Assembly: GCF_003334815.1 (NCBI RefSeq)
Contig: NZ_QOWO01000003.1
Origin: Escherichia coli
Lineage (GTDB): Bacteria > Pseudomonadota > Gammaproteobacteria > Enterobacterales > Enterobacteriaceae
Length of the DNA: 64,000 nucleotides
Direction: 5' to 3' (one strand)
The position numbers were made by a program, and so were the translations under genes. This document shows, in pieces, positions 62,061 to 62,204 of the stretch; positions within the stretch are counted from its first letter, which is position 1; each line of letters starts with the position of its first letter. Under the pieces are notes generated by a model that saw only the letters and a list, made by a program, of their open reading frames with translations, made no database searches and was not told the DNA's origin.

Positions 62061-62082
62061 ATCAACCATCTGGTTGGTTGAT
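62061..62082. promoter_or_regulatory. Candidate TetR operator: perfect inverted repeat ATCAACCA-N6-TGGTTGAT
   Basis: 8-bp perfect inverted repeat in the divergent tetR / SDR intergenic region; a second palindrome GTGATCAC lies at 62091-62098. Confidence 0.4.
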
Positions 62083-62204
62083 ATGCGATAGTGATCACAG
62101 GACATTTGATAACTTGATGAAAGTACAAGTTTTTATCCTTTTTACTGGAGCTTCTAATTAATCGGGTTAAGATAGTTATCTTGAAGAGGTCGTGGGGAAG
62201 CGTT

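Follow-up and report, generated by a model that had tools for sequence, protein, structure and literature searches.

The perfect inverted repeat located between the gene of a TetR-type regulator, full-length YtfA, and a divergently transcribed, putatively catabolic operon in Escherichia coli is very probably the binding site of this neighbouring regulator, as judged from the conservation of the repeat and its co-occurrence with the regulator gene. Moreover, the control region as a whole can be read, with a probability of about 0.75, as a two-input catabolic promoter, which would combine a YtfA operator at positions 62061-62082, overlapping the predicted -35 hexamer, with a separate class I site for CRP. 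The CRP site has already been mapped; the TetR operator was previously uncharacterised. All positions refer to the 64-kb stretch of DNA that was analysed, termed the window in the following, the part of which from 61000 to 63600 is 100% identical to ATCC 8739 and many other strains.

The regulator gene (62205-62852, plus strand) encodes a TetR/AcrR-family protein of 215 aa (RefSeq WP_001299246.1). Its cluster representative, which is 99% identical (P0001), features the Pfam domains TetR_N (PF00440) and TetR_C_29 (PF17938), and the NCBIfam and PDB matches of the regulator are TetR-family proteins only. In previous work, ytfA was listed as a TetR-family gene that is variably present among E. coli strains (PMC6790063), while YtfA is regarded as a pseudogene in K-12 (CRISPRi note, bioRxiv 10.64898/2025.12.20.695731). 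Our literature search for a function or an operator of YtfA yielded none, returning only this variable-gene listing and the CRISPRi pseudogene note.

The divergent operon is located between rplI and ytfB and is encoded on the minus strand. Its first gene (61201-61992) specifies a short-chain dehydrogenase/reductase (SDR) annotated as 3-ketoacyl-ACP reductase (NCBIfam PRK12745, 417 bits). The remainder of the operon (53069-61191), assigned from open reading frames, NCBIfam matches and annotation, comprises a sugar-phosphate isomerase/epimerase-like TIM barrel (60349-61191), an enoyl-CoA hydratase (59563-60345), a type I CoA transferase (58012-59553), a fumarate-reductase-like FAD oxidoreductase (55934-58015) as well as the small permease (55437-55937), the large permease (54093-55394) and the substrate-binding protein (53069-54040) of a TRAP transporter. 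The operon appears to be an accessory catabolic one that is sporadically distributed in E. coli. As to its function, NCBIfam gave generic names only, the PDB relatives of the TIM barrel are uncharacterised and a literature search found nothing.

The intergenic region between the SDR gene on the minus strand and the TetR-family gene on the plus strand extends from 61993 to 62204 and thus comprises 212 bp with 37% GC. Within this region, the initial annotation had proposed two elements as candidate TetR operators, an inverted repeat with 8-bp arms and an 8-bp palindrome, and both are indeed present. The arms of the repeat, ATCAACCA (62061-62068) and TGGTTGAT (62075-62082), are 100% complementary and enclose a 6-nt spacer, TCTGGT, while the palindrome GTGATCAC occupies exactly the place assigned to it, 62091-62098, with 8 nt between the two elements. 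On a single sequence, however, the inverted repeat is only mildly unusual: perfect inverted repeats whose arms measure 8 bp or more, separated by 0-10 nt, arise in 76 of 2000 dinucleotide shuffles of the intergenic region (3.8%), and of 602 tiles of 212 bp taken from the window, 33 (5.5%) contain one. GTGATCAC is not unusual at all, being expected by chance, as an 8-bp perfect palindrome is present in 56% of the shuffles (1126 of 2000). The full 22-mer pattern has a single match in the 64-kb window when up to three mismatches are allowed. Hence, the significance of the inverted repeat derives from its conservation across loci and not from the single sequence.

As suggested in the initial annotation, the motif was sought at the operon in other genomes, and the inverted repeat proved to be conserved in the orthologous loci. 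These stem from Escherichia whittamii, E. albertii, a divergent E. coli, Klebsiella spallanzanii, Entomohabitans, Salmonella, Citrobacter, Leminorella, Lelliottia and three more sources (metagenomic or other), the TetR of which is only 59-67% identical; the Salmonella locus, which the genome scan had not returned, was added by exact-protein look-up. Across the whole enterobacterial set the TetR proteins are 56-100% identical. Thirteen orthologous intergenic regions were aligned, and the sites of 14 enterobacterial loci were tabulated. The gene order SDR-TIM barrel-enoyl-CoA hydratase-CoA transferase, divergent from tetR, is kept in all orthologous loci collected, with different chromosomal surroundings in Leminorella and two other loci.

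Within the 13 aligned regions, the block 62058-62082 reaches a column identity of 0.92-0.96 as compared with 0.55-0.70 for most of the region, which renders the operator block the most conserved part of the SDR-tetR intergenic region. The sequence ATCAACCA...TGGTT is kept in all 14 enterobacterial loci. In genera other than Escherichia the spacer reads TCTAGT, giving rise to a palindrome of 22 bp in which 10 of the 11 pairs are symmetric, and the most distant group features ATCAACCA-AATAGT-TGGTT. On the basis of the perfect repeat and this conservation, the 8-N6-8 element ATCAACCA-TCTGGT-TGGTTGAT at 62061-62082 (unstranded) is predicted to be the operator of the adjacent TetR. Within E. coli, a single copy of the site was found in each of 3143 complete genomes out of 5426, including the B-type strains C41(DE3) and BAP1, ATCC 8739 and ETEC H10407, and it is also present in Salmonella, Citrobacter and others.

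Furthermore, the genome scan gave 19 alphaproteobacterial loci, the TetR proteins of which are 33-41% identical. There, tetR is not accompanied by the enterobacterial operon but by genes for an SsuA-like binding protein, an ABC permease and an amidase. The form ATCAACCA-N2/N6-TGGTTGAT, at up to three mismatches in 16 positions, was nevertheless found at the tetR flanks in 19 of 19 loci, situated directly in front of tetR, shortly after its 3' end or at both places. Altogether, 29 of the 33 alphaproteobacterial sites fall within the 6.4% of the scanned sequence that constitutes the tetR flanks (binomial P = 6e-31). When loci of more distant TetR proteins were scanned for the same form, none of 23 carried a site. 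The alphaproteobacterial TetR proteins in question keep an invariant helix-turn-helix, GARVD..I...A...KQ.VYHH.GNK. The motif thus follows the DNA-reading head and not the regulated genes, and by following the regulator it is marked as the operator of that regulator. We would regard this linkage of motif and regulator as the strongest evidence for a cognate operator that can be obtained without the protein. In these alphaproteobacterial loci there are usually two boxes, as in Sneathiella (locus L016, 3893-3914 and 4679-4700), the first between the divergent SsuA-like binding-protein gene and tetR, the second between tetR and the ABC permease/amidase operon. Such an arrangement points to a small regulon with two operators, which would serve an amide or sulfonate-like substrate.

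An origin of the repeat other than protein binding, either as a transcript hairpin (a terminator or another RNA element) or by mere chance, is barely credible. A terminator-like scan does flag the repeat on the minus strand, and its RNA fold amounts to -11.9 kcal/mol (z = -3.3). However, only 3 of the 8 pairs in the stem are G-C, the tail CTTTCTTGCG does not form a U-run, no convergent gene reads into the repeat and, under the promoter model outlined below, it would lie upstream of both starts. In addition, arms and spacer are conserved as sequence, devoid of compensatory changes, and an Rfam search for an RNA family gave no match. Chance could be invoked given that a repeat of such size emerges in about 4% of shuffles, but it is ruled out by the conservation in the 14 enterobacterial and 19 alphaproteobacterial loci.

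The second element, GTGATCAC, turned out to be the right part of a CRP-binding site and is separate from the TetR operator. The core of this site, TGCGATAGTGATCACA (62084-62099, unstranded), deviates by one mismatch from TGTGA-N6-TCACA and belongs to a 22-bp site at 62081-62102 with its centre at 62091.5. A match to the CRP consensus alone is not significant in 64 kb, where three were found as compared with 1.8 expected. In all 14 loci, however, the site retains its register, with 0-2 mismatches and a distance of 19-20 bp from the operator, centre to centre, and Leminorella carries a version without any mismatch, TGTGAGTTGAATCACA. Occupancy by CRP is documented in the literature: the sequence TGTGATCACTATCGCA, which is the exact reverse complement of the window 16-mer TGCGATAGTGATCACA, is listed for ETEC H10407 among the high-confidence CRP ChIP-seq sites, located between ETEC_4557 and ytfA (Haycocks et al., Table 1, PMC4287617). 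Both the CRP 16-mer and the operator were confirmed in the H10407 intergenic region. The coordinate given in the ChIP-seq paper is about 200 bp off the RefSeq record, but the distance to the yjfY/rpsF peak amounts to 10,754 bp in the paper (PMC4287617), in agreement with the 10,761 bp between the two window sites. The latter peak corresponds to TGTGATGAACTTCAAA (51323-51338) in the yjfY/rpsF intergenic region, which has one mismatch to the CRP consensus and is likewise a CRP ChIP-seq site in ETEC H10407 (Table 1, PMC4287617).

Accordingly, the proposal that both elements are candidate TetR operators needs to be divided: it stands for the inverted repeat, which is conserved among orthologues and the half-site of which follows the TetR clade, but not for GTGATCAC, which is expected by chance and perfect in only two of 14 loci, namely the E. 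coli window and E. albertii. Some TetR-family regulators do use two operators, and both elements are palindromic and lie 8 nt apart in the divergent region; moreover, several alphaproteobacterial loci have two sites. That YtfA binds both elements is nonetheless very improbable. Apart from its poor conservation and the abundance of such palindromes in shuffled sequence, GTGATCAC shows no similarity to the operator half-site ATCAACCA, and the conserved positions around it spell TGTGA-N6-TCACA, a site that CRP occupies in vivo (PMC4287617).

The perfect 8-N6-8 repeat is real, yet it may overstate the functional register. An alternative 8-N2-8 register, ATCAACCA-TC-TGGTTGGT (62061-62078, unstranded), contains one mismatch, and its core CAACCA-TC-TGGTTG (62063-62076) resembles a RutR box. 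In Alphaproteobacteria, most sites are 8-N2-8 palindromes, perfect or nearly so, of the type ATCAACCA-AC/GT-TGGTTGAT, and the enterobacterial sites fit N2 (1-3 mismatches) as well as N6 (0-3 mismatches), never N4. Moreover, the invariant block stops at 62079, one base beyond the N2 boundary, and 6 of the 14 enterobacterial loci lack the outer GAT of the right (N6) arm. A 4-bp duplication of an ancestral 8-N2-8 palindrome was considered as the origin of TGGTTGGTT and rejected in view of the orthologues, which mostly read TCTAGT; the Escherichia spacer differs from TCTAGT by one A-to-G change. Besides the operator itself, two weak matches to the N2 form ATCAACCANNTGGTTGAT with three mismatches each were noticed inside open reading frames, at 28778-28795 and at 56282-56299, the second of them in the FAD oxidoreductase gene of the same operon. 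Although the total of three N2-form matches in the window compares with 0.29 expected, these two are probably due to chance.

RutR is the TetR-family pyrimidine regulator of E. coli, and its similarity to YtfA extends to both protein and site. The N-terminal DNA-binding region is similar (PDB 3loc, E = 7.7e-8, residues 9-92; NCBIfam RutR, E = 1e-9), and both operators are palindromic with an ACCA-NN-TGGT core. The alphaproteobacterial ATCAACCA-NN-TGGTTGAT shares the 7/8-N2-7/8 geometry with the RutR sites (PMC2475637). The RutR consensus is TTGACCAnnTGGTCAA, to which sites bound by RutR in vivo match at 7-13 of 14 positions (PMC2475637). In the N2 register, TCAACCA-TC-TGGTTGG shares 9 of 14 positions with TTGACCAnnTGGTCAA, the key positions 4 and 13 among them. 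On the other hand, the half-site is TCAACCA here as opposed to TTGACCA in RutR boxes, YtfA scores far below the RutR equivalog cut-offs and possesses a C-terminal domain of the TetR_C_29 type, its target is the adjacent operon and not a dispersed regulon, and the enterobacterial sites also display the N6 register, which is not seen in RutR boxes.

Since 9 of 14 matches lie within the range of in vivo RutR sites (PMC2475637), the repeat could in principle be bound by RutR through cross-binding, or by an unnamed factor, with the adjacent TetR acting elsewhere. This alternative is improbable: the motif tracks the YtfA-like gene across unrelated contexts in two proteobacterial classes, the half-site is systematically CAACCA and not GACCA, and the site is single-copy per genome. 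Judged by its consistently different half-site, the element is not a RutR box but would work like one.

The registers also invite a comparison with QacR-IR1, where two TetR-family dimers bind. A single dimer of this family typically spans 15-16 bp, and the palindrome considered here extends over 22 bp with a spacer that is as conserved as the arms. Unlike the QacR geometry, however, the registers are 4 bp apart in one arm. A joint reading of these features is decidedly tentative. The box of the YtfA clade would be RutR-like and composed of phased 4-bp units, (ATCA)(ACCA)...(TGGT)(TGAT), with spacings of N2 or N6 but never N4; the pairing of head and box would have been preserved between Alphaproteobacteria and Enterobacteriaceae, with the regulated genes being replaced; and the enterobacterial left half-site together with two tandem right half-sites (TnGT-TGGT-TGAT) could allow two registers or a pair of dimers. 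If true, the two-register or paired-dimer reading would represent an unusual mode of DNA recognition for a TetR-family protein.

With regard to the promoters, a position-weight matrix of our own was applied, with frequencies based on published compilations, and candidates were judged by their register across species; a stricter sigma-70 scan with a 9-of-12 threshold found no promoter in the intergenic region. For the operon, the matrix scan and the cross-species register point to a predicted -35 hexamer TTGATC at 62060-62065 on the minus strand, five of its six bases lying in the left arm of the operator, and a predicted -10 hexamer CAAGCT at 62037-62042, which is replaced by CATCTT, CATTTT or CATCGT in other genera. 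The combination TTGATC-17-CAnnnT recurs in the same register, being one of the four best-ranked candidates on the minus strand in 12 of 13 orthologues, the 17-bp spacer is constant among the 14 tabulated loci, and in the 13 aligned orthologues the A at 62041 (-11) and the T at 62037 (-7) are invariant. CAAGCT would be a weak -10 element, with transcription predicted to start near 62030. Due to the overlap with the -35 hexamer, the conservation of the left arm could partly reflect its promoter role. An alternative -10 element, TAATTG (62037 to 62032), matches TATAAT in Lelliottia but was rejected, as it entails a worse -35 hexamer and worse CRP phasing and is not conserved.

For tetR (ytfA), a -10 hexamer TAAGAT is predicted at 62168-62173 on the plus strand. 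It reads TATGAT or TATAGT elsewhere, with T62168, A62169 and T62173 being invariant, and was found by the matrix scan in 12 of 13 aligned orthologues, the top match in Leminorella being TAGAAT, 3 bp upstream of TATGAT. The operator is located about 100 bp upstream of this conserved -10 element, and at such a distance autoregulation through the operator is not evident. In Entomohabitans teleogrylli (locus L006, 3690-3990), a G+C-rich insertion of about 210 bp separates the CRP/operator module from tetR. The operator is still 65 bp from the SDR start codon there, which fits an action on the operon promoter.

Relative to the predicted start near 62030, the CRP site is centred (62091.5) at -61.5, or at -60.5 in four loci, and class I positions of CRP are near -61.5, -71.5, -82.5 and -92.5. 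The operator would span from about -31 to -52, with its centre 39.5-41.5 bp upstream of the start. Since class II activators likewise bind at sites centred around -40, the location of the operator alone does not prove repression, and YtfA might bind its operator in order to activate the operon promoter from about -40 in a class II-like manner. The weak core promoter would be compatible with activation, and a few TetR-family members do activate, FasR and DhaS being among the weak NCBIfam matches of YtfA. Such activation is unlikely all the same: most TetR-family proteins repress and are released by a ligand, an activator, CRP, is already adjacent at a predicted class I position, and the operator overlaps five of the six bases of the predicted -35 hexamer. 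That YtfA represses the promoter instead of activating it is, in our estimation, distinctly probable.

A mechanism by which YtfA and CRP might jointly govern the operon can be envisaged as follows. YtfA bound to its operator would occlude the -35 hexamer and thereby block access of sigma region 4 and the alpha C-terminal domain to the promoter. A ligand would release YtfA from the operator, as is the case with other TetR-family repressors, and CRP-cAMP would recruit RNA polymerase to the weak promoter from its class I position as it does at lac. Expression of the operon would then only occur when glucose is absent and CRP is bound, and when an inducer is present and the TetR protein is released.

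At lac P1, CRP is centred at -61.5. The predicted layout is analogous in that a CRP site with one mismatch, which is occupied in H10407 (PMC4287617), would lie 61.5 bp upstream of the predicted start of a weak core promoter, and in that a substrate-specific repressor is predicted to yield an AND-type logic. It differs from lac P1 in the place of the repressor site, which is located between CRP and the predicted -10 hexamer and overlaps the predicted -35 hexamer here, whereas lacO1 lies downstream of the start.

As to the ligand of YtfA, it may be the acid that is transported or else a CoA thioester arising in the pathway. In view of the weak similarity of YtfA to FadR and KstR2 and of the CoA chemistry of the operon, a CoA thioester is a reasonable guess. 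As with the acyl-CoA-sensing TetR proteins (Bacillus FadR, KstR2 and PaaR-type), the regulator gene is divergent from an operon that encodes an enoyl-CoA hydratase along with a CoA transferase. Among the best full-length-type NCBIfam and PDB similarities of YtfA are those to Bacillus FadR (E = 4e-12, residues 14-155) and to KstR2, and some sources label YtfA orthologues 'KstR2'. However, none of the scores comes close to the family cut-offs (for FadR, 46 bits versus 200), and the YtfA operator sequence is not known to be related to the boxes published for FadR and KstR2.

Taken together, the analysis provides a concrete layout of a putative operator and promoter for YtfA, an uncharacterised regulator known in K-12 only as a pseudogene, and it would explain the previously unannotated "ETEC-specific/ytfA" CRP ChIP-seq peak as the class I site of the operon. 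The operator consensus can be used for predicting the regulon of the YtfA-type TetR clade in other bacteria. No general principle is changed thereby: the scheme corresponds to textbook catabolic control, with an ordinary TetR operator.

Several further elements were noticed in the intergenic region. On the plus strand, the pair TTGATA-17-GACATT (62077-62105), the first hexamer of which (62077-62082) belongs to the right arm of the operator, attains the best sigma-70 score in the window, and its Lelliottia version is TTGATT-17-TATTAT; the CRP site would sit in its spacer. As a promoter, the pair was rejected, since A-11 is not conserved in Salmonella, E. albertii and Citrobacter, and it may either be a second tetR promoter of particular lineages or have no role. 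CTTGCG-N6-CGCAAG (62039-62056), in the spacer between the predicted -35 and -10 hexamers of the operon promoter, was discarded as an element as well; this repeat is disrupted in E. coli E69, is not present in other genera, and appears to be lineage-specific or due to chance.

Another inverted repeat, AAGATA-GT-TATCTT (62169-62182), overlaps the predicted tetR -10 hexamer and start. E. albertii and Citrobacter read ATGAT-AGTN-ATCAT at this place, both arms having changed together; the repeat is confined to about three lineages and absent in Salmonella and Klebsiella. It may represent a second regulatory site at the tetR promoter. Between the CRP site and this repeat, the block TTGATAAC....TGA (62106-62120) contains, among the 13 orthologues, an invariant A62111 and an invariant TG at 62118-62119, with T62110 and A62112 nearly so; compared by eye with CRP, IHF and sigma-70 sites, it gave no good match. 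Of the two Dam GATC sites, one (62060-62063) overlaps the predicted -35 hexamer and the operator flank and is kept in 12 of 14 orthologues, the other (62093-62096) overlaps the CRP site and is kept in 11 of 14; both could be incidental to the binding-site sequences. Finally, the CoA transferase is an intact 513-aa open reading frame in the window, whereas the RefSeq record of ATCC 8739, which is thus either in error or a different assembly from that of the window, lists a frameshifted pseudogene that is 1 bp shorter (locus L001, 13014-14554).
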